35,497 bases of DNA from Sphingomonadaceae bacterium. GTDB lineage: Bacteria; Chloroflexota; UBA6077. The notes under the pieces are model-generated. The model saw only the letters and a program-made list of their open reading frames with translations, was not told where the DNA came from and did no database searches. Shown one piece after another: positions 11,664 through 27,259 of this stretch (its first letter is position 1; each line of letters starts with the position of its first letter). The position numbers and the translations under genes are program-made. Where the stretch lies: contig JBLNDL010000053.1 of the NCBI GenBank assembly GCA_050261575.1, forward strand, positions 1 through 35,497. Direction: 5' to 3'.

Positions 11664-11823
11664 TAGTACCCCCTGGACCTTTCCCTGTAGTCGGTAGACT
11701 ACCAAGCGCCGGGATATCCTGCCTGCTTGCCGGTGGCCTATTGCCCCAAGCCGCAGCCGGCAGGTGCGCAACCCGTGGCCCGGTGACAACCGCTTCCTGA
11801 GCGCCGGGGGTCGTAGCCGGTTC

Positions 11824-14800
11824 ATGGATCGCCCCGCCTTTCTCACTAAGATCAGATTGCCGCAGCGACGCCAGGACGTGTTGCGTCGCGGCAGACTGGT
11901 GGATTTCCTCCACCAGCACGTGGACAAGCGGCTGATAATCATCTCTGCCGCCGCTGGTTACGGCAAGACCACCCTCCTGGTAGACTTCGCCCACGACGTG
12001 GACCTCCCCATCTGCTGGTACTCCCTGGATGCCTCGGACGCCGATCCACGGAGCTTCTTCGAGTACCTGCTACTCTCGCTCCGGCAACGGTTTCCCGGAT
12101 TCGGGCGGCACACCGAGGCCCTCCTCCAGTCGGTGGGGGACGTCGGGAGAGAGGTCAACTCGATCGTCGCGTCCCTTACCAACGAGATCCAGACGGACAT
12201 CCCAGACTACTTCCTGTTGATCCTGGACGACTTCCACTGGGTTGACAACAGCGAAGTGGTCCACTCCGCCCTCGATCTCCTGATCTACTACCTGCCTGAC
12301 AACTGCCACCTGCTGCTGTCCTCCCGCACTCTGCCCCAACTCACCTATTCCCGCTTGGCCGCCCAGCGCCAGGTCGCCGGACTCGGCACCATCGACCTCC
12401 GGTTCACCCCGGAGGAACTCTCCCGCCTGCTGCGGGACAACTACAAGCTGGTGATGCCTGCCCGCCAAGCAGAGGAGTTGACCGAAGCCGCGGAGGGGTG
12501 GATCACCGGAATCCTACTCACCACACACACCCTTTGGATGGGCCTGGTCGAGAACCTCGTGAAGGCGAAAGGAGCCGGCAGCCCGCTGTTCGACTATCTG
12601 GCCAACGAAGCCTACCGACACCAGCCTCCGGAAGTCCAGAGCTTTCTGCTCCGCTCCTCGGTTCTTCGCCAGATGTCCCCGGAGCTGTGCGACCGGCTCT
12701 TCGCCCAGGGAACGGCCTCGGAGATGCTCGCCTATCTAGTGCGGGCAAACCTGTTCGTGGTCGCGCTGGAAGGGCCCGACGAGTGGTATCGCTACCACAA
12801 CCTGTTCCAGGAGTTCCTCCAGGCGAAGCTGAAGGCAGAGGATCCCAGCCTGTACTTCGACCTGCATCGCAGATCAGCGAAGATGTCCGAGGAGCAGGGG
12901 GACTGGGACTCGGCCATCGGCCACTACCGTGAGGCGAGAGAGTACGATGGTGCCGCCAGGTTGGTGGAGAGGGTTGGCGAGGAGATGATCCACTCTGGCA
13001 AGTGGCGCACCCTCTACAGGTGGCTGGATTCCCTGTCCCCGTCCTCGTTCGATGACATGCCAAGGCTCTCCCTCTTCCGCGGCCGAACCTACTTATGGTC
13101 CGGAGAGGTCGACCGGGCAATAGACTACATGGAGCGTGCAGCGAAGCGGTTCCTCGCTCAGGATGACCCCGACGGCGCGGCGACCTCGCTTACCCTCAAG
13201 AGCGTCGGACTGCGCTTCAAGGGCCGGACGGTCGAGGCCTTGGAGGCGTGCAGGGAGGCCTTGGCGCTCCCAATCGACCCCGCCGGCAGATCAGCCGCCG
13301 ACGCCTATCGAGACACGGGGATATGCCTGGCCTCCCTGGGCAGACTGGCGGAAGCCGAGGTAGAACTCCACCGGGCACTGGAGATCTACGACCGCATCGG
13401 CGACGAGCCGGGGGTCGCCACGATCTGCCAGTCCATAGGGATCCTCTCGGTGCGAATGGGCAACCTGGCGAAGGCGATGATGCACTACCGGAGGGCCCTC
13501 GGCACGTGGCAGAAGTCCGGCAGCGCAGCCTACACCGCGCACGTTCTCAACTGCATCGCCCTCATCCACTACTACACTGGGGAGTATCAGCAGGCCCTGC
13601 CGATCCTGGAGGATGCACTAGCCAAGGCGCAGAGTGGGGGTTATCTGCGGGTCGAGGCATTCGTTCTGGGAAGCATCGGCGACCTCCGGCGAGACTCCGG
13701 GGATCTTCGCGCGGCCACGGAGGCATACGAGAGCGCGCTCGAGATCGCACAACGAGTCGACGAACTTCCCCTCGTGAACTACCTCCTCGATGCCCTGGCC
13801 AACACCCATCGACTGCTTGGTGACTACGCCACCGCGGAGCGGCTCCTCCGCCAGGCTCTCCAGCAGGCGGAGGAAACGCAGTCGGACTACGAGATCGCAA
13901 CCTACTCCATCTCTGCGGGCGTCTTGGCCGAGGAACAGGGCGACCTCGATCGAGCGGAGCAGTTTCTCCGTTCGGCGCTCGACGTCCTGGTTGCCTCGGG
14001 CGCCAAACGGGATGTCGCGCGAGCCCGCTTTCACCTCGCGCGCACCCTCTTCGCCCTCGACCGCAAGGAGGAAGCCAGGCAAGAGCTGGAGGGGTGTCTC
14101 GAGCTGTGCCGCCAACTGGGATACGATGCCTTCCTCGTTGCAGAGGGCCAGCGCGCAGGCCGGTTGATCTCCTGGGCAGTCTCCCAGGAGATCGGAGGCA
14201 GAAGGCTGGAGCTGGTCGCCCAGCGGCTCGAACTCCCCAGGCAGCCCCTGCAGGAGATGCGCCGTCCGAGGATCCGTGTCGAGTCCAGCGGTCCAAATCG
14301 GATCGAGGTCTTCTCCCTCGGGCAGGCGAGAGTGCTCGTGGATTCCCGCCCCATCACGAGCAGCGACTGGGCAGTGGAGAAGACCAAGGAGCTGTTCTTC
14401 TACCTGCTTCAGCAGGCCCACCCCCTGCGCAAGGAGCAGATAGTGGACGACGTGTGGCCGGAGGTGGACATGGCGAAGAGCAATAGCCAGTTCCACTCCA
14501 CCATGTACCGGCTGCGCAGGGCACTCTTCCCGCAGTGTGTGATCTACCGAGACGGCCGATACCAACTGACGCTCGGCAACGCCTTGTGGTACGACATGGA
14601 GGAGTTCGTCCGGCTTCTGGACGCCGCCGAGCAGCCAGATGTTCCCGGCTCCCAGCGGATCGAGCTGTACACGCAGGCGCTGAAGCTCTATCAAGGGCCA
14701 TTTCTAGACGAGTTGTACGCCGACTGGGCTGCAACTGAGAGAGAGGAGCTGGAGCTGCGCCACCTTCAGGCGCTGAACCGGCTCGCTCGGCTCAAGGCGG

Positions 14801-15045
14801 AACAGGGGGACATGGAGCAGGCCGTGGAGCTACTGCGCACCGCCGTGGCCAAGGACCCATTCCAGGAGGAGACCCACTACGGGCTGATTCACTACTCGGC
14901 CCTCATGGGAGACAGGGCTGCCGCCCTGAGACACTACCGCAGCTACGTCGAGTTGCTGCGGGACGAACTGAGCGCCAAGCCCAGCGCCGGAGTGTCTGCC
15001 CTGGCTGAGCGCATCGCCAGCGGCCAGTCTATCCCCTCGCTGTGA
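11824..15045 (+). CDS. MalT-like STAND ATPase-TPR regulator with C-terminal winged-helix/BTAD (SARP-type) domain
   Basis: TKIRLP..R..LRRGRL, AAAGYGKTT Walker A, LILDDFH Walker B, EGW, WYRYHNLFQEFL, many TPR-like helices, KTKELFFYLL..MYRLRRAL, YQGPFLDELYADWA..DPFQEE BTAD. Confidence 0.88.
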   Translation: MDRPAFLTKIRLPQRRQDVLRRGRLVDFLHQHVDKRLIIISAAAGYGKTTLLVDFAHDVDLPICWYSLDASDADPRSFFEYLLLSLRQRFPGFGRHTEALLQSVGDVGREVNSIVASLTNEIQTDIPDYFLLILDDFHWVDNSEVVHSALDLLIYYLPDNCHLLLSSRTLPQLTYSRLAAQRQVAGLGTIDLRFTPEELSRLLRDNYKLVMPARQAEELTEAAEGWITGILLTTHTLWMGLVENLVKAKGAGSPLFDYLANEAYRHQPPEVQSFLLRSSVLRQMSPELCDRLFAQGTASEMLAYLVRANLFVVALEGPDEWYRYHNLFQEFLQAKLKAEDPSLYFDLHRRSAKMSEEQGDWDSAIGHYREAREYDGAARLVERVGEEMIHSGKWRTLYRWLDSLSPSSFDDMPRLSLFRGRTYLWSGEVDRAIDYMERAAKRFLAQDDPDGAATSLTLKSVGLRFKGRTVEALEACREALALPIDPAGRSAADAYRDTGICLASLGRLAEAEVELHRALEIYDRIGDEPGVATICQSIGILSVRMGNLAKAMMHYRRALGTWQKSGSAAYTAHVLNCIALIHYYTGEYQQALPILEDALAKAQSGGYLRVEAFVLGSIGDLRRDSGDLRAATEAYESALEIAQRVDELPLVNYLLDALANTHRLLGDYATAERLLRQALQQAEETQSDYEIATYSISAGVLAEEQGDLDRAEQFLRSALDVLVASGAKRDVARARFHLARTLFALDRKEEARQELEGCLELCRQLGYDAFLVAEGQRAGRLISWAVSQEIGGRRLELVAQRLELPRQPLQEMRRPRIRVESSGPNRIEVFSLGQARVLVDSRPITSSDWAVEKTKELFFYLLQQAHPLRKEQIVDDVWPEVDMAKSNSQFHSTMYRLRRALFPQCVIYRDGRYQLTLGNALWYDMEEFVRLLDAAEQPDVPGSQRIELYTQALKLYQGPFLDELYADWAATEREELELRHLQALNRLARLKAEQGDMEQAVELLRTAVAKDPFQEETHYGLIHYSALMGDRAAALRHYRSYVELLRDELSAKPSAGVSALAERIASGQSIPSL

Positions 15046-15129
15046 GAACGAGTACTCACGCGTCGTAAGCCTTCGTGGCAGGAGGCCCGCACCCTTCCAG
15101 TATTCTTCTCTCAGAAACCCCTTTGAGCG

Positions 15130-15203
15130 CTAAGCAGGTATCTCCAGATGGAGTACACGCGTCCCGCCAGAAAAGTCCACATGAACTGGTGATTCCCGCC
15201 CAG
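15130..15203 (+). mobile_element. 74-bp TIR-bounded dispersed element (MITE-like), copy A
   Basis: CTAAGCAGGTATCTCCAG...CTGGTGATTCCCGCCCAG; aligns without gaps to three other copies. Confidence 0.75.
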
Positions 15204-15298
15204 CACTGTGAGAGATTTGCGAGAATCGGTCCGTATACTCCCCCGCAGTTGAGGGTTCCTCGGGGAACCCGCCAGATGATGAGGAGGGAGTTGAAGAG

Positions 15299-15403
15299 AT
15301 GAAGACCGTGCGACACATCTACGTGAAGGTCCTGTACGCTGTCCTCGCCATCGCTGCGCTGGCCATGGCTGCGGGTGCGCCCGAGGGCTGGCCGATGCCG
15401 TAA
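15299..15403 (+). CDS. 34-aa signal-peptide-like small protein MKTVRHIYVKVLYAVLAIAALAMAAGAPEGWPMP (not in the ORF track)
   Basis: Strong RBS GAGGAGGGAG 8 nt before ATG; TATACT at 15234-15239; basic N-terminus, hydrophobic core, short polar tail; stem-loop at 15422-15447 after the TAA. Confidence 0.75.
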   Translation: MKTVRHIYVKVLYAVLAIAALAMAAGAPEGWPMP

Positions 15404-15521
15404 CTTCAGCCGCGCGCACCGCCCGCGACCATCGGTTGAGTCGCGGGGAGGGGCAGCGAGCCTTGCGGCTCGACACCGACGGCACTCCCAGGACAACCAG
15501 ACTATCTTCAGGGGCTTTTCG

Positions 15522-16121
15522 TTGATACTGGTTTTTGCTGTCATCATCGGCGTCGGCGTGGCACTGCTTCGAGGGGGAGCGTTAGGTAGACTGGCTCACC
15601 TGCAGCTTCGACTCGGGTGGCTGGCACTTCTCGCGCTGCTGGTGCAGATGTACGTCATCTACTATCCGGCAGAGCGGGTCCAGATGGAGCGCTCCCTCCA
15701 CGCCGCGCTGATGATGGGGTCGTACGTCGTTCTGACGGTCGTCGTGCTGGTTAACGGGCGAATACCGGCGATGCCCATCATCGGACTGGGGCTGATCCTC
15801 AACCTGCTGGTCATGGGCAGCAACGGAGGCTTCATGCCCGTCAGCCGCGAAGCGATCCTCACCACTGGGACCCGAACGGTCGACCAGTTGCCAGCGGATG
15901 GGGAGAGGCTTCCCAGGTCCAAAGACGTGTTGCTTCCCGCCGATCAGACGCGGCTCTGGATCCTCTCCGACATAATCACAGCACCCGATTCGGTGCCCCT
16001 AGCGAGGGTCTACAGCATCGGCGATCTTGTAGTCGCCGCCGGCACCTTCCTCCTGCTCCAGGCTGCGATGGTGCCCCCCAAGAAGAGGCGATACCTGGGT
16101 GAAGAGATCGGGGTCGCCTGA
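15522..16121 (+). CDS. DUF5317-like multi-pass membrane protein
   Basis: TTG start after AGGGG; ALLRGG.L.RL, G..LNLLV..SNGGFMPV, LSDII...YSIGD signature. Confidence 0.75.
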   Translation: MILVFAVIIGVGVALLRGGALGRLAHLQLRLGWLALLALLVQMYVIYYPAERVQMERSLHAALMMGSYVVLTVVVLVNGRIPAMPIIGLGLILNLLVMGSNGGFMPVSREAILTTGTRTVDQLPADGERLPRSKDVLLPADQTRLWILSDIITAPDSVPLARVYSIGDLVVAAGTFLLLQAAMVPPKKRRYLGEEIGVA

Positions 16122-16156
16122 CCAAACCCGCAGACGTTCGCCCTTCAGGAGGAACG

Positions 16157-16429
16157 ATGGGGCCACACAAGGAACTGGAGAGACTCATCGGCGCCGCGAT
16201 CGTTGATGGCGAGTTCCGGGCGAGCCTCCTCGAGTCACCATTGGCTGCCGCCGCGGGCTTCGATCTCGCGGAGGACGAGCTAGCCGTCCTGGATTCTGCC
16301 GGCGCCGACTCATTGGAGGAGTTGGCAGCCCACATCTACGCTTGGATCACCAAAGCTACCACTCCCAAGCGAGTTACCGCCGCCCGGTGGAGCCTGGACG
16401 GCCATCAAGCAGCGCGCATCGCGGTGTAG
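16157..16429 (+). CDS. Small NHLP-leader-like protein (Os1348/Franean1_4349-like)
   Basis: AGGAGG RBS; LERLIGAAIVDGEFRASLLESP....GFDLAEDE pattern typical of nitrile-hydratase-leader-like domains. Confidence 0.65.
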   Translation: MGPHKELERLIGAAIVDGEFRASLLESPLAAAAGFDLAEDELAVLDSAGADSLEELAAHIYAWITKATTPKRVTAARWSLDGHQAARIAV

Positions 16430-16489
16430 GCGCTTCCTTCACGGCACCAACGGGCCCGCCCGACTTCCCAGACGGGTTGGCCCAGGTGT

Positions 16490-16539
16490 TCGGCGGCCGG
16501 CGCTCAGTGATGTGCCCGCGGCTGAGCGCCGGCCGCCGA
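16490..16539. terminator. Perfect 18-bp inverted repeat between convergent genes
   Basis: TCGGCGGCCGGCGCTCAG (16490-16507) pairs with CTGAGCGCCGGCCGCCGA (16522-16539). Confidence 0.6.
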
Positions 16540-16552
16540 GTCTCTCCTGCCC

Positions 16553-16626
16553 CTGAGCAGGTGTCTCCAGATAGAGTGCGCGTTGCCCGCGAGAGTAGTT
16601 GACATGAGCTAGGAATACCTGACTAG
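16553..16626 (+). mobile_element. 74-bp TIR-bounded dispersed element, copy B
   Basis: CTGAGCAGGTGTCTCCAG...CTAGGAATACCTGACTAG; right end overlaps the aldehyde dehydrogenase TAG stop. Confidence 0.75.
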
Positions 16627-18113
16627 CCGATCCCCTCCACCAGGTCGATCTGCGCCCTCTGCAGCCTCCCCGAGTAGTCCACGTACACCGTCTTCCACTC
16701 GGTGAACACGTCCAGCGCCGTCCACGCGGCCTCGCGGTGGCCATTGCCGGTCCCTCGGGTGCCGCCGAACGGAAGCTGGACCTCGGCCCCTATGGTGCCG
16801 GCGTTGACGTACAGGACGCCGGTCGTCACGTCTCTCGAAGCGGTGAATGCCTTGTTCACGTCCCGAGTGTAGATCGAACTCGACAGTCCGAACCTGGTAT
16901 CGTTGTTCACTCGGATCGCCTCCTCCAGGCTATCCACCGCTATGATGCCCAGGGTGGGGCCGAAGATCTCCTCCTGGGCTATCCGCATGTGCGGCCGCAC
17001 TTCCGCAAAGATGGTTGGAGGATAGAAGTTGCCCCTCGCGAGCTCTCCCTCACGGGCGATCTCGCCGCCGCACAGCAGCCTGGCCCCCTCCTGCACACCG
17101 ACCTGCGTGTAGCCGTGGATTCTCTCCAACTGCCGAGCGTTGATGACCGGCCCCACATCGGTCTGAGGATCTAACCCGTGGCCCAGCCGCATCTTGCGGG
17201 CGCGTTCCACCAGTCGATCGGTGAGATCCCTCTCCACCGCCCGATGCACTATCACCCGGCTGGCCGCAGTGCACCGCTGGCCGGCGGTCCCGAACGCGCT
17301 CCATAGGATTCCCTCCACCGCCAGGTCGAGATCCGCGTCCTCCATCACCATGATGGCGTTCTTGCCGCCCATCTCCAGCGACACGCGTTTGATCCGTCCA
17401 GCCGTCTCCGTGAGGACGGAGCGGCCCGTCTCGGTAGAGCCGGTGAAGGAGACGACGTCCACCCGCGGGTGGTTGACCAGGGCGTTGCCCGCTTCGCCAC
17501 CGCCACCGATCACGAGATTCAGCACTCCGCCGGGCAAGCCGGCCTCTTCGTACAGCTTTACCAACTCCGCCGCGAGGACCGGCGTATCGCTCGCGGGCTT
17601 GAACACCACCACGTTGCCACAGATCAGCGCAGCGGTCAGCTTCCAGCTCGGAATGGCGATGGGGAAGTTCCACGGCGTTATGGCAGCAACCACCCCCACC
17701 GGATCTCGCATCGAAGTGCCGAATTTGTTCGGGAGCTCCGAGGGCACCGTGTGTCCGAAGAGACGTCGCCCCTCCCCGGCCATGTAGTAGGTCATGTCGA
17801 TCGCCTCTTGCACGTCGCCACGGCCCTCGGCGATCACCTTCCCCATCTCTCGTGTGACCAGTCGAGCCAGTTGCTCTTTCCGCTCCTGCAGCAACTGCCC
17901 CACCCTGAAGAGGATCTCACCACGCTTGGGAGCCGGCGTAAGCCGCCAACTCCTGAAAGCGACCTCGGCAGCCTCCACCGCCCGCTCGACGTCGGCAGGT
18001 GACGATCTGGGCACTATGCCCACCACTTCGCCCGTCGCCGGATCCAAGCTCTCGAAGCTCCTGTCGCTCTCAGAGTCGACCCACTTGCCTCCGATGTAGT
18101 TCTTGTACTGCAC
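16623..18113 (-). CDS. NAD(P)-dependent aldehyde dehydrogenase
   Basis: ITPWNFP, FKPAS, FTGSTETG, LEMGGKN, GQRCTA catalytic Cys, EEIFGP, PFGG; GTG at 18113 after GGAGGT. Confidence 0.93.
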   Translation of the reverse strand: MQYKNYIGGKWVDSESDRSFESLDPATGEVVGIVPRSSPADVERAVEAAEVAFRSWRLTPAPKRGEILFRVGQLLQERKEQLARLVTREMGKVIAEGRGDVQEAIDMTYYMAGEGRRLFGHTVPSELPNKFGTSMRDPVGVVAAITPWNFPIAIPSWKLTAALICGNVVVFKPASDTPVLAAELVKLYEEAGLPGGVLNLVIGGGGEAGNALVNHPRVDVVSFTGSTETGRSVLTETAGRIKRVSLEMGGKNAIMVMEDADLDLAVEGILWSAFGTAGQRCTAASRVIVHRAVERDLTDRLVERARKMRLGHGLDPQTDVGPVINARQLERIHGYTQVGVQEGARLLCGGEIAREGELARGNFYPPTIFAEVRPHMRIAQEEIFGPTLGIIAVDSLEEAIRVNNDTRFGLSSSIYTRDVNKAFTASRDVTTGVLYVNAGTIGAEVQLPFGGTRGTGNGHREAAWTALDVFTEWKTVYVDYSGRLQRAQIDLVEGIG

Positions 18114-18290: not shown

Positions 18291-20096
18291 TTACGGCCCG
18301 ACAAGACCGTTGCTCTGCTTTGCCTGGAGGGCGTCCAGCCTCTGCTGGACCCTGCCCGTGACCTCGATGGTCAGCCCCTGCAGATCGGCGCGGAGCCGGT
18401 CTATTCGTGCTCGCAAACCCTCCCGAACCTCGTTCTGCAACCCCTCCAGGGGAGAACGCAACCGTTGGGATAGCTCCTGCTGCAGCGCGTCGACCTGGGC
18501 CTGCAGCCCCTTCAACTCCCGCTGCCACCGGCTGCTTAGCTCAGCCTGCAGCGCCCAAACGTCGCCCTGCACGCCCTCCAACTGCTCGTGCACCTCTTCG
18601 AGGTGCAGTTGGAGCCGTGACGCCAGCTCGATCTGCACCCCCTCCACATCGGCCTGCAACCTCTCCAATCCCCGCTGGGCTTCGGCCAGCCGGGTCTGGA
18701 TCCGCTCCCGCAGGTCGACGTGGAGCGTGTCCAGGTAGGAAGCGGGATCGGTCACCTGAGCCAACATCGCCTTGGCCCGCTGCAACCCGCGCCTCGGGAT
18801 GCGCCCCTGCCGAATCATCTCCTTCATCTGGGAGAAGCTCATCACCGTCTCGCGATAGAGGTTCGCCATCTGCTCGTAGAAGCGCTCCGGCGGCAGCTTG
18901 GTCGGCAACACGCTGTGGAAGAAGTCGAACTTCTCCCATCCGCCCTTGATCAGGTGCTTGGTCTCCTCGTACAACTGAGTGCCGGGAAGAGGCGTCAGGA
19001 TCGTGAACTGAAGGAATTGGATCCGCTTCCGCTTGACGTACTCGATCAACCCCTCGAAATCCCGCTCCTCCCAATTGGGATTGACCAGGAACGCGCCCCA
19101 GATGTCTATCCCGTTGGCGTGCATGATATCGATGGCCTTGTCGTTGACGGCCACCGAAGCATCCTTCCCCTTGTTGAAGTTGCCAAACTCCTCCTCTCGG
19201 TAGGCCTCCAGCCCCATCAGCACCGTCGACAGCCCCGCGCGCGCCGCCAGCGCGATGCCCTCCGGATCCCTTACCATGGCGTCCGCCCGTCCCTGGATCC
19301 AGAACTTCTTCCGAATGCCGCGCTCAAGCATCATCTGGGCTATCCGTCGGGTCCGTGGCATCGAGGCGAGGAAGTTGTCGTCAACGATGCAGAAGTAGTC
19401 GCAGTCACGGGGAAGTGCGCTCACCTCGTCCAATACCCGCTCAGGCGACTTGAAGCGCACCTTGCCGCCGAAGAAGCGCCAGACCGAGCAGAAGTTGCAC
19501 CGATAGGGACACCCTCTGGTGGTCTCGATGGAGTACACGTTGTCCCAGAAGCGGAAGAAGTAGTCGTCTCGGTACTGCGCGACTAGGTCGCGCCTGGGCA
19601 GCGGCAGCCGATCCAGATCCTTCACCGGCGCGCGAGCGGGAGTGACGCGCAGGCGCCCACCCTCCCGATAGCCGATGCCAGGCACAAGAGAGGGGTCGCC
19701 CCCAGTCTCCATCGTCCGGACCAGCTCGGGGAAGGACACCTCCCCTTCACCGAACACCACGTAATCCACTTCCTCGGCGTCGAACTCCGTGGGGCTCACG
19801 GAGACGTGGTGACCGCCTACCACCACCTTGGCTTCGGGGCGAACACGCCGGACCGTTCGGCAGATCTCTTGGGCATGGGGCACCTCAGCGGTGTAGCTCG
19901 TGGTCCCCACCAGGTCCGGCTGGAAGCTCTCCAGCGCACCCTCCAGGTTGGGATCGCACCGCATATCGAGAATGCGCACCTCGTGATCCGAAACCGAACC
20001 CGCCACCATCTCCAGAGCCAGCGGTTCCGGACGAGCCAGTCGCTTGAAACCGATGCAGGTCTTGTTGGAATCGGGCTGGACCAGCAGTATCCGCAT
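18291..20096 (-). CDS. Cobalamin-dependent (class B) radical SAM enzyme, HpnR/BchE-like, with a C-terminal amphipathic-repeat extension
   Basis: B12-binding N-terminus (EPLALE, VVGGHH, GEGE), TRGCPYRCNFC CxxxCxxC motif, DDNF, LTPLPGT; ATG at 20096 after AAGGGGA. Confidence 0.88.
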   Translation of the reverse strand: MRILLVQPDSNKTCIGFKRLARPEPLALEMVAGSVSDHEVRILDMRCDPNLEGALESFQPDLVGTTSYTAEVPHAQEICRTVRRVRPEAKVVVGGHHVSVSPTEFDAEEVDYVVFGEGEVSFPELVRTMETGGDPSLVPGIGYREGGRLRVTPARAPVKDLDRLPLPRRDLVAQYRDDYFFRFWDNVYSIETTRGCPYRCNFCSVWRFFGGKVRFKSPERVLDEVSALPRDCDYFCIVDDNFLASMPRTRRIAQMMLERGIRKKFWIQGRADAMVRDPEGIALAARAGLSTVLMGLEAYREEEFGNFNKGKDASVAVNDKAIDIMHANGIDIWGAFLVNPNWEERDFEGLIEYVKRKRIQFLQFTILTPLPGTQLYEETKHLIKGGWEKFDFFHSVLPTKLPPERFYEQMANLYRETVMSFSQMKEMIRQGRIPRRGLQRAKAMLAQVTDPASYLDTLHVDLRERIQTRLAEAQRGLERLQADVEGVQIELASRLQLHLEEVHEQLEGVQGDVWALQAELSSRWQRELKGLQAQVDALQQELSQRLRSPLEGLQNEVREGLRARIDRLRADLQGLTIEVTGRVQQRLDALQAKQSNGLVGP

Positions 20097-20315
20097 GCGA
20101 TTCCCCTTTCTAGATGCGGAACAGTGAGTACACCCGCCCCGGCAAGCCGATCCGCCAACCTGACCGCTCATCGAGCACCACAAAGGCTGAAAGTCCTTTG
20201 CGAAGTCACGAATTCGGCAAGGCCACGGCGCCCTTCGACTCGCCCAGACGTAGTAAGCAATGACAGCTTACAGGCTGCTCAGCAGGGAATCAACAAGTGC
20301 AGTACTTCGCTTGGT

Positions 20316-27185: not shown

Positions 27186-27259
27186 CTAAGCAGCCATCTC
27201 TAGTTCATGTCAACTTCTCTGACGGGAAACGCGTACCCTATCTGGAGATACCCGCCTAG
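27186..27259 (-). mobile_element. 74-bp TIR-bounded dispersed element, copy D
   Basis: Minus strand CTAGGCGGGTATCTCCAG...CTAGAGATGGCTGCTTAG; overlaps the MFS gene TAG stop. Confidence 0.75.

Follow-up and report, generated by a model that had tools for sequence, protein, structure and literature searches.

A DUF5317 membrane protein and its Cys-free mini-peptide partner in Chloroflexota: a candidate aspartyl peptidase with an LspA-like local motif

A DUF5317 gene next to a small peptide gene

The window analysed here is a stretch of 35,497 nt from a Chloroflexota genome (Sphingomonadaceae bacterium, GenBank assembly GCA_050261575.1, contig JBLNDL010000053.1, forward strand), and the gene under study, at 15522-16121 on the plus strand, encodes a 199-aa membrane protein of the DUF5317 family, starting at a TTG codon with the motif AGGGG ahead of it. 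The product matches the Pfam profile DUF5317 (PF17248) over positions 2-151 of 151 (E = 5e-33) and scores 114.7 bits against a gathering cut-off of 25, which makes it a member of the family; DUF5317 is also the sole Pfam family found at E ≤ 0.01, and no NCBIfam model matched the protein. DUF5317 is a large family without assigned function, with 6405 cluster representatives in a profile search (E ≤ 0.001), and a literature search on it found no paper in the library searched. The gene is part of a cassette of conserved order, consisting of a regulator with AAA, TPR and BTAD domains, a mini-peptide, DUF5317 and an Os1348/NHLP-like small protein.

The original prediction, made from the DNA sequence alone, had pointed to the motifs G..LNLLV...NGG, WILSDII and RVYSIGD in this protein, with two Asp residues 18 positions apart before the last transmembrane helix. 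All of these motifs were recovered in the translation of 15522-16121, in the form of G90-LIL-N94-LLVMGS-N101-GG-FMP, followed by W146-ILS-D150-II and R162-VYSIG-D168, and then by the last helix (residues 166-183). That is, the two Asp residues are D150 and D168, with a spacing of exactly 18 residues.

The conservation of both Asp residues had been named as a check on that prediction. They were followed in an alignment of 213 homologues of 150-280 aa, made up of 68 homologue-search matches and the best 150 of the 6405 cluster representatives. Of the 213 sequences, 211 keep D150 (codon 15969-15971, in an LSD motif of the outer loop) and likewise 211 keep D168 (codon 16023-16025, in an S-x-G-D motif where helix 5 starts on the outer side). 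The three Asn residues N78 (212), N94 (212) and N101 (211) are similarly fixed, as are G90 (212), G103 (213), M105 (213), P106 (212), S165 (212) and G167 (212). Several of these residues fall in one invariant block encoded at 15789-15839, which comprises G90-x3-N94 in helix 4 and N101-G-G-F-M-P at the outer end of the same helix. Since the 213 homologues are the best-scoring relatives, we also drew on a scan of 301 Chloroflexota genomes for 35 more divergent members, among which are six MFS transporter fusions; all 35 keep D150, D168, G90, N94, M105, P106, G167 and G174. Judged from these alignments, the conservation of DUF5317 residues is far above chance.

DUF5317 occurs in 91 of the 301 sampled Chloroflexota genomes (a tally that includes the unpublished genome G219), as well as in Thermus thermophilus and Thermotoga maritima. 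Many genomes encode it as an N-terminal fusion to an MFS transporter, in open frames of 612-753 aa, a size commonly seen around DUF5317 matches in certain Chloroflexota families. The fusion is also found in ESM Atlas clusters, with MFS_1 or MFS_3 domains, from Actinomycetota. One such fusion (L032:2821-4839, 672 aa) joins DUF5317 to a 12-helix MFS-type transporter and is directly preceded by a gene for a membrane-anchored HD-GYP-like protein (L032:1264-2808).

Predicted structure and topology

AlphaFold2 modelling of the DUF5317 product gave a mean predicted local distance difference test score (pLDDT) of 80 with 38 aligned sequences and of 93.4 with 148 sequences, the latter with a predicted template modelling score of 0.87. 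The model contains five long helices (residues 2-16, 32-47, 54-77, 84-100 and 166-183), and a 65-residue loop of short strands and turns separates helices 4 and 5. Across the 213 sequences, net charge was +2.9 in loop 1, +1.3 in loop 3 and +0.9 in the C-terminal tail, with the N-terminus, loop 2 and the long loop 4 being approximately neutral. By the positive-inside rule, DUF5317 is therefore oriented with its N-terminus outside and its C-terminus inside, which places D150 and D168 at the outer surface, where they flank the last helix. Furthermore, the model with pLDDT 93.4 has a strand pair (152-153 with 163-164) between the two Asp residues, and, to judge from this secondary structure, the pairing should bring D150 and D168 together.

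An ESM Atlas feature search excluding PF17248 gave no usable match. The one match obtained when PDB chains were searched with the single protein (E = 2.7) was dismissed as chance.

The mini-peptide and its conservation upstream of DUF5317

Upstream of DUF5317, at 15299-15403 on the plus strand, lies an open reading frame (ORF) for a 34-aa precursor-like mini-protein, with an AGGGAG ribosome-binding site 8 nt before its start. The peptide consists of a K/R-rich N-terminus, a hydrophobic helix, a junction A-M-A-A-G-A-P and the tail EGWPMP, so that its C-terminal end reads ...ALAMAAGAPEGWPMP; it contains no Cys and matched no Pfam or NCBIfam family. Residues G26-A27-P28 (codons 15374-15382) form the conserved junction and, as read from the sequence, a candidate processing site. 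The lipobox-like MAAG/A junction without Cys that the original prediction had seen in the adjacent peptide is thus present, and it turned out to belong to a conserved partner gene.

This conservation was followed over 114 DUF5317 loci, comprising 80 public Chloroflexota contigs (best tblastn matches), 33 loci from the genome scan and the window itself, all of which are relatives of each other rather than independent samples. Among them, 107 had at least 400 nt of upstream sequence and were scanned, up to 1.3 kb upstream, for same-strand ORFs of 18-80 aa with a hydrophobic 12-residue window, then G-A-P, and then at most 25 residues. Such a mini-ORF was found upstream of DUF5317 in 71 of the 107 loci, compared with 0 of 107 when the stretches were reverse-complemented and none in downstream stretches of equal length. 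Ten of the 36 misses have the motif in ORFs longer than the 80-aa limit (4) or carry near variants of it (6; GAL, GAD, AGD, TAP, AAP and SAP). By tblastn, relatives of the 34-aa peptide itself were detected upstream of DUF5317 in six loci. By these sequence signs, the gene of the small peptide is genuine and is a conserved partner of DUF5317.

We compared 75 distinct partner peptides drawn from loci L005-L117. The invariance of G-A-P in their alignment is a product of the way in which the ORFs were selected; the contrast with the controls is not. At least two K/R residues lie in the N-terminal part, and the Gly is preceded by an uncharged stretch of 15-19 residues (median 15), a near-constant length that suggests a ruler between a cytoplasmic anchor and the junction. 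The three positions before the Gly are occupied by L/I/A/V/M, then A/G, then A/S/G. After G-A-P follows a variable, Gly-rich tail of 5-18 residues (median 8), which includes W, F or Y in 46 of the 75 peptides. The lipobox is [LV][ASTVI][GAS]C (PMC8689077). Not one of the 75 peptides has a Cys within positions -6 to +4 of the junction, and Gly stands at the Cys position; the lipid-modified Cys that marks the lipobox of A8 substrates is thus absent from the partner peptides. Their layout is that of a lipoprotein signal peptide (n-region, h-region and box), with Gly replacing Cys.

In some Anaerolineae contigs the mini-peptide gene stands upstream of DUF5317 in near-identical tandem copies, reminiscent of multi-copy pheromone or bacteriocin precursor genes, with five copies in L110 (5137-5869) and two each in L039 (5659-5970), L041 (5148-5385), L082 (5651-5977) and L067 (702-1677).

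Comparison of DUF5317 with LspA

The same genome encodes a canonical signal peptidase II (LspA; G000:C16), with a PF01252 match at 2.6e-37, in which the motifs G..GN..DR, VVDF and FN(V/L)AD quoted for LspA by the original prediction have their counterparts in GGATGNLIDR, VFDF and FNVAD. LspA was detected in 40 of 41 sampled Chloroflexota genomes, this one included (the tally also contains the unpublished genome G038), so DUF5317 is an addition to LspA and not a replacement for it. Tandem pairs of neighbouring LspA paralogues occur in four Chloroflexota genomes (G036:C5:2412412-2413352, G024:C5:21249-22195, G011:C1:149927-150861 and G019:C14:151662-152647), as seen in the phylum genome scan.

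According to PMC6952399, LspA has four helices and a beta-cradle, with the catalytic dyad Asp118/Asp136 of Staphylococcus aureus LspA near the outer surface and the signal peptide lying against H2-H4. The same paper gives 14 highly conserved residues, which in S. aureus numbering are Asp21, Lys25, Asn52, Gly54, Gly102, Asn106, Asp109, Arg110, Val116, Asp118, Phe132, Asn133, Ala135 and Asp136. The two Asp residues of the S. aureus enzyme are 18 residues apart (PMC6952399), as in DUF5317; in the LspA of this genome they are 14 residues apart.

Profile comparisons were made with hhalign against three LspA alignments, built from 115 close relatives of the genome's own LspA, from 30 phylum-wide sequences and from both sets merged, and DUF5317 scored 27.5, 24.8 and 23.8 against them (P 0.004-0.014, probability 3-8%). 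Reversed LspA scored 19.0, and neither 100 column shuffles of LspA (mean 13.9, maximum 21.8) nor 100 shuffles in 12-column blocks (mean 15.4, maximum 21.9) produced an equal score, i.e. the observed value was reached by none of the 200 shuffles. Other membrane protease families scored lower with DUF5317, namely Peptidase_A24 (23 sequences) 18.4, Rhomboid (28) 14.1 and Rce1-like (20) 13.8, and the six pairings among the four known families gave 15.8-19.3. When the profile was restricted to the C-terminal part of DUF5317 (residues 140-199), LspA scored 24.7-27.4 versus 10.0-14.3 for the other families. Over the runs against the LspA alignments the score was 23.8-28.2, with P 0.0002-0.014 and a probability of 3-28%, over 21-80 columns only. 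The DUF5317 profile against the single LspA sequence of this genome scored 19.7 over 28 columns, which is within the control range.

The common piece is the start of the last helix, where the DUF5317 consensus aFSxGDvlIaxG faces vFNvADSaIvvG of LspA. D168 consequently lands on the second catalytic Asp of LspA, and it was paired with the Asp of FNxAD in every run against A8 for which an alignment was printed. Two further attempts were abandoned. Global hhalign alignment of DUF5317 with LspA was meaningless (probability 0.1), and the idea of a collinear alignment after removal of the long loop was dropped because the deletion raised no score (24-28) and moved D150 to another Asp of LspA. Candidate counterparts to the conserved LspA residues comprise G90/N94 for Gly102/Asn106 (by eye), one or both Asp residues, and F/Y164-S165-x-G167-D168 for Phe132-Asn133-x-Ala135-Asp136; no DUF5317 counterpart was found for Asp21, Lys25, Asn52, Gly54, Asp109, Arg110 and Val116. 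Structurally, H2-H4 of both LspA structures align to helices 3-5 of DUF5317 with 12-14% identity, the highest in the list.

DUF5317 thus resembles LspA (MEROPS A8, PF01252; 5DIR, 6RYO and 6RYP) in being a small polytopic membrane protein with two invariant Asp residues near the outer surface on either side of the last helix, a putative catalytic pair of the A8 type, and in the last-helix motif F-[NS]-x-[AG]-D-x2-[IV]-x2-G. The candidate substrate, too, would be similar, having a positively charged N-region, an h-region and an [LIV]-[AG]-[ASG] box. The differences are that DUF5317 has five helices, an external N-terminus, about 45 extra residues before the first Asp and short strands only in its 65-residue outer loop, that most conserved LspA residues are missing, and that the candidate substrate has Gly-Ala-Pro where the substrate of LspA has diacylglyceryl-Cys, with a 'mature' part of just 5-18 residues. 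Since the Asp pair and its placement, and perhaps G-x3-N, are common to both and the rest is absent, DUF5317 cannot be filed in family A8; it has an LspA-like local arrangement and is not assignable to that family.

The cassette and its surroundings

The gene upstream of the mini-peptide (11764-15045, plus strand) encodes a STAND-type regulator of 1093 aa, with an N-terminal AAA/MalT-like ATPase, a TPR array, and a C-terminal AfsR/SARP-like DNA-binding region plus BTAD. Its Pfam matches are TPR_12 (2.7e-41), BTAD (1.5e-22) and AAA_16 (3.4e-05), and the NCBIfam models MalT (3.1e-84) and AfsR (3e-23) matched below their cut-offs. Homologues of this regulator are encoded on the same strand, 250-1400 nt ahead of DUF5317, in 79 of the 114 loci (window included).

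Downstream of DUF5317, at 16157-16429 on the plus strand, lies a gene for a 90-aa protein of the Os1348/Frankia_peptide family of the NHLP clan, which passes the curated cut-offs of both PF14407 (9.4e-14, 51.9 bits against 48) and NF038399 (1e-14, 54.4 bits against 40). In 68 of 111 loci, again with the window included, an iterated hidden Markov model (HMM) search placed an Os1348-like homologue immediately after DUF5317. A literature search on Franean1_4349 found no paper. According to PMC7726476, Os1348 of Pseudomonas sp. Os17 is a dimeric protein that resembles the precursors of ribosomally synthesized and post-translationally modified peptides and is tied to antibiotic activity, and its partners in the OS3 cluster are putative modification enzymes and efflux genes, whereas the partners here are DUF5317, the mini-peptide and the STAND regulator.

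The genes that follow were surveyed in the 66 loci whose downstream sequence reaches 2.5 kb or more; up to two same-strand ORFs of at least 150 aa were taken per locus, past the Os1348-like gene where there is one. An HD_5 (HD-GYP) protein with GAF/PAS domains was found in 30 of the 66 loci, a response regulator in nine and a histidine kinase in three. The cassette of the window has no HD-GYP or response-regulator element, an aldehyde dehydrogenase gene on the opposite strand coming next.

After the Os1348-like gene, an inverted-repeat search revealed an 18-bp inverted repeat whose perfectly matching arms are 14 nt apart (16490-16539, plus strand), a possible transcript end that was not called as a terminator because it lacks a T-run. 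The promoter scan called no sigma-70-like promoter, and an Rfam search of 14900-16700 gave nothing near any gathering score. Copies of a dispersed intergenic repeat of about 70 nt were located by blastn at 15130-15204, 16553-16627 and about 27196-27259 (minus strand). The first two flank the cassette as a 75-nt direct repeat, which was considered as a regulator site and ruled out because the repeat is dispersed genome-wide. It exists in well over 100 copies of 70-90% identity, in both orientations and on most contigs, and looks like a repetitive extragenic palindromic element or a miniature inverted-repeat transposable element that is not cassette-specific. Elsewhere in the window, the gene at 18291-20183 (minus strand) encodes a B12-binding radical SAM protein that resembles HpnR below the cut-off (231 bits against 650); about 130 residues at its C-terminus form a tail of apolipoprotein-like repeat or coiled coil, which is unusual for its family.

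Discussion

We favour, with a probability of roughly 45%, the reading that DUF5317 is a new outer-face aspartyl peptidase that releases the tail of the adjacent peptide. The gene linkage, the residue invariance, the topology and the local LspA-like motif are established; from them we infer proteolysis, a cleavage site, release of the tail and its sensing by the regulator. That is, the mini-peptide would insert into the membrane with its K/R-rich N-terminus in the cytoplasm, its uncharged helix of about 15 residues spanning the bilayer so that the junction [LIV]-[AG]-[ASG]-G-A-P would emerge at the outer surface. D150 and D168, which flank a short hairpin ahead of the last helix at that surface, would act as a catalytic dyad as in LspA, and a cut at or beside G-A-P would free the variable tail of 5-18 residues, here (G)APEGWPMP. 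The freed tail may then act as a signal, for which the gene order suggests the co-encoded AAA-TPR-BTAD regulator as candidate receptor. The operon also includes the Os1348-like protein, and that of relatives HD-GYP enzymes or response regulators. DUF5317 would thus work in an LspA-like manner without being a member of A8. Signal peptidase I is blocked by a Pro immediately behind a small-x-small site, which would explain the need for a dedicated enzyme.

A number of results weigh against this reading. No Peptidase_A8 HMM matched the DUF5317 product, and the LspA and DUF5317 HMMs gave no cross-match in either direction at E ≤ 100 among 20,814 six-frame ORFs of this genome, in which the home-built LspA HMM finds the genome's own LspA at 3.5e-84. 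Foldseek comparison of a predicted structure with LspA had been proposed as a check, and neither DUF5317 model gave anything below E 0.88 against the PDB; the ESM Atlas structure search returned only DUF5317 clusters, and the DUF5317 profile had no match at E ≤ 10 among all PDB sequences. The hhalign probability is just 3-28%, its robust part covering about 21-37 columns around D168, and the register of D150 is unstable, this residue facing the catalytic Asp of VFDF in one run and the non-catalytic Asp of NLIDR in the loop-deleted run. Plausible counterparts exist for just 5-7 or so of the 14 conserved LspA residues, and the helices number five as opposed to the four of LspA. On the side of the peptide, 26 of the 107 loci lack one in the 600-1300 nt scanned upstream, among them the five MFS-fused forms tested (L032-L036), and tails of only five residues, as in some peptides, or with a high Gly content, as in many (mean fraction 0.39), are odd for a signal. 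Structure prediction gives weak support to a DUF5317-peptide complex, and it reported no interface. The predicted complex scored 0.37, versus 0.00 for the best of three controls, its runs agreeing in at least 93% of contacts with a partner pLDDT of at least 60; in the calibration, 116 of 157 solved complexes and two of 215 mismatched pairs attained the mark, but only 18 of the 157 solved complexes and both passing mismatches did so at 0.60 or less. Taken together, the description of DUF5317 as a divergent LspA-fold protease is supported in part, through the invariant outer Asp residues, a local last-helix motif that scores above shuffles and other proteases, and the conserved partner peptide with its Cys-free junction, and it is not supported as regards membership of A8.

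The main rival is a non-proteolytic complex, in which DUF5317 would be a membrane partner or receptor and the mini-protein, comparable to MgrB and other small membrane regulators, would stay uncut as a single-pass subunit or regulator. Together they would modulate signalling output, through HD-GYP proteins or response regulators in relatives and through the STAND regulator here, and the invariant Asp and Asn residues would bind an ion or a small ligand. We regard this as rather unlikely, though the linkage supports a pairing and not a cleavage and is explained equally well by such a complex, the structure searches recognised no protease fold, and signalling genes do lie downstream (HD_5 in 30, response regulators in nine and histidine kinases in three of the 66 loci). 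The constant helix of 15-19 residues would also fit a fixed intramembrane packing interface, and the predicted complex score of 0.37 versus 0.00 is compatible with stable binding. However, a hypervariable tail behind an invariant junction, together with gene tandems, is the usual pattern of processed precursors and not of structural subunits; two invariant outward Asp residues in an LspA-like local motif would be left unexplained, and with a C-terminal tail of about 16 residues DUF5317 has almost no cytoplasmic mass for signalling. A role in transport or export of the peptide, or in immunity to it, without hydrolysis, would agree with the fusions to MFS pumps and with polar residues inside the helices (N78, N94 and Q42). 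It appears quite improbable, since five helices with one long outer loop correspond to no known transporter layout and no transporter fold was matched. Peptidase-domain ATP-binding cassette exporters are a known cleave-and-export arrangement, and the pump fusions would fit such an arrangement equally well.

Two other readings keep the proteolysis and change the family. It is improbable that DUF5317 is a true, very divergent A8 homologue, with an extra N-terminal helix pair and an insertion of about 45 residues between H3 and the first catalytic Asp. The hhalign score that exceeds all controls, the structural alignment of H2-H4 and the elements common by eye (G-x3-N in the penultimate helix, an Asp, and F-[NS]-x-[AG]-D-x2-[IV]-x2-G) speak for such a homology; the low hhalign probability, the unstable register of the first Asp, the failure of the greedy alignment to pair G90/N94 with the Gly and Asn of LspA, the missing HMM cross-match and the presence of canonical LspA alongside, in this genome as in 40 of the 41, speak against it. 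Hardly credible is an intramembrane aspartyl protease of the GxGD type, i.e. related to prepilin peptidase or presenilin and not LspA-like. The second Asp in S-x-G-D at the start of a helix does resemble GxGD, but 212 of the 213 sequences begin the motif with Ser, not Gly, and the sequence is thus not a GxGD motif; the predicted structure puts the Asp pair, with its 18-residue spacing, at the surface and not on two mid-membrane helices. Peptidase_A24, represented by 23 Chloroflexota sequences, aligned over only nine columns in an unrelated helix (18.4) and scored 12.5-14.3 with the C-terminal profiles.

The arrangement suggested by the peptidase reading can be compared with known peptide-signalling systems. 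AgrB-AgrD is one of several systems with a dedicated pheromone-processing membrane protease, AgrB being a cysteine protease that makes a thiolactone. As in AgrB-AgrD-type systems, a small precursor gene lies beside that of a polytopic membrane protein, a variable signal part is joined to a conserved recognition part, and the genes are linked to regulators. DUF5317 differs in having no sequence or fold relation to these proteins, and its output partners are a STAND/TPR regulator and an NHLP-like protein, joined in relatives by HD-GYP enzymes. RRNPP quorum sensing (PlcR-PapR, Rap-Phr, NprR-NprX) relies on secreted peptides of 5-10 residues and a TPR-containing cytoplasmic factor encoded alongside. 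The likeness is one of adjacency, the gene of a TPR-containing regulator lying nearby in 79 of the 114 loci, and peptide sensing in the DUF5317 cassette would be conjectural throughout. The regulator here is a 1093-aa AAA-TPR-BTAD STAND protein, MalT/SARP-like and without an RRNPP fold; the precursor carries a signal-anchor and is paired with a membrane protein of its own, and no import system was identified.

It is possible, as a more tentative extension, that DUF5317 founds a family of outer-face aspartyl 'signal-anchor peptidases' that cut Cys-free lipobox-like junctions and release signals of 5-18 residues. Such a family would have arisen independently of LspA or would have diverged from it beyond recognition, and the circuit would be one of undescribed cell-cell or envelope signalling, read in Chloroflexota by STAND AAA-TPR-BTAD regulators and, in other lineages, by cyclic di-GMP enzymes or exported via fused MFS pumps. 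A literature search on Chloroflexi quorum sensing, signal peptides and SARP found nothing relevant among the matches listed. If DUF5317 is indeed a peptidase, the small number of known membrane aspartyl proteases would gain a new family, and it would follow that the LspA-type solution, with two Asp residues at the outer leaflet and a signal-peptide-like substrate, also serves non-lipidated substrates. The cassette would then represent a peptide-signalling system in a phylum for which the literature searched holds no such system.

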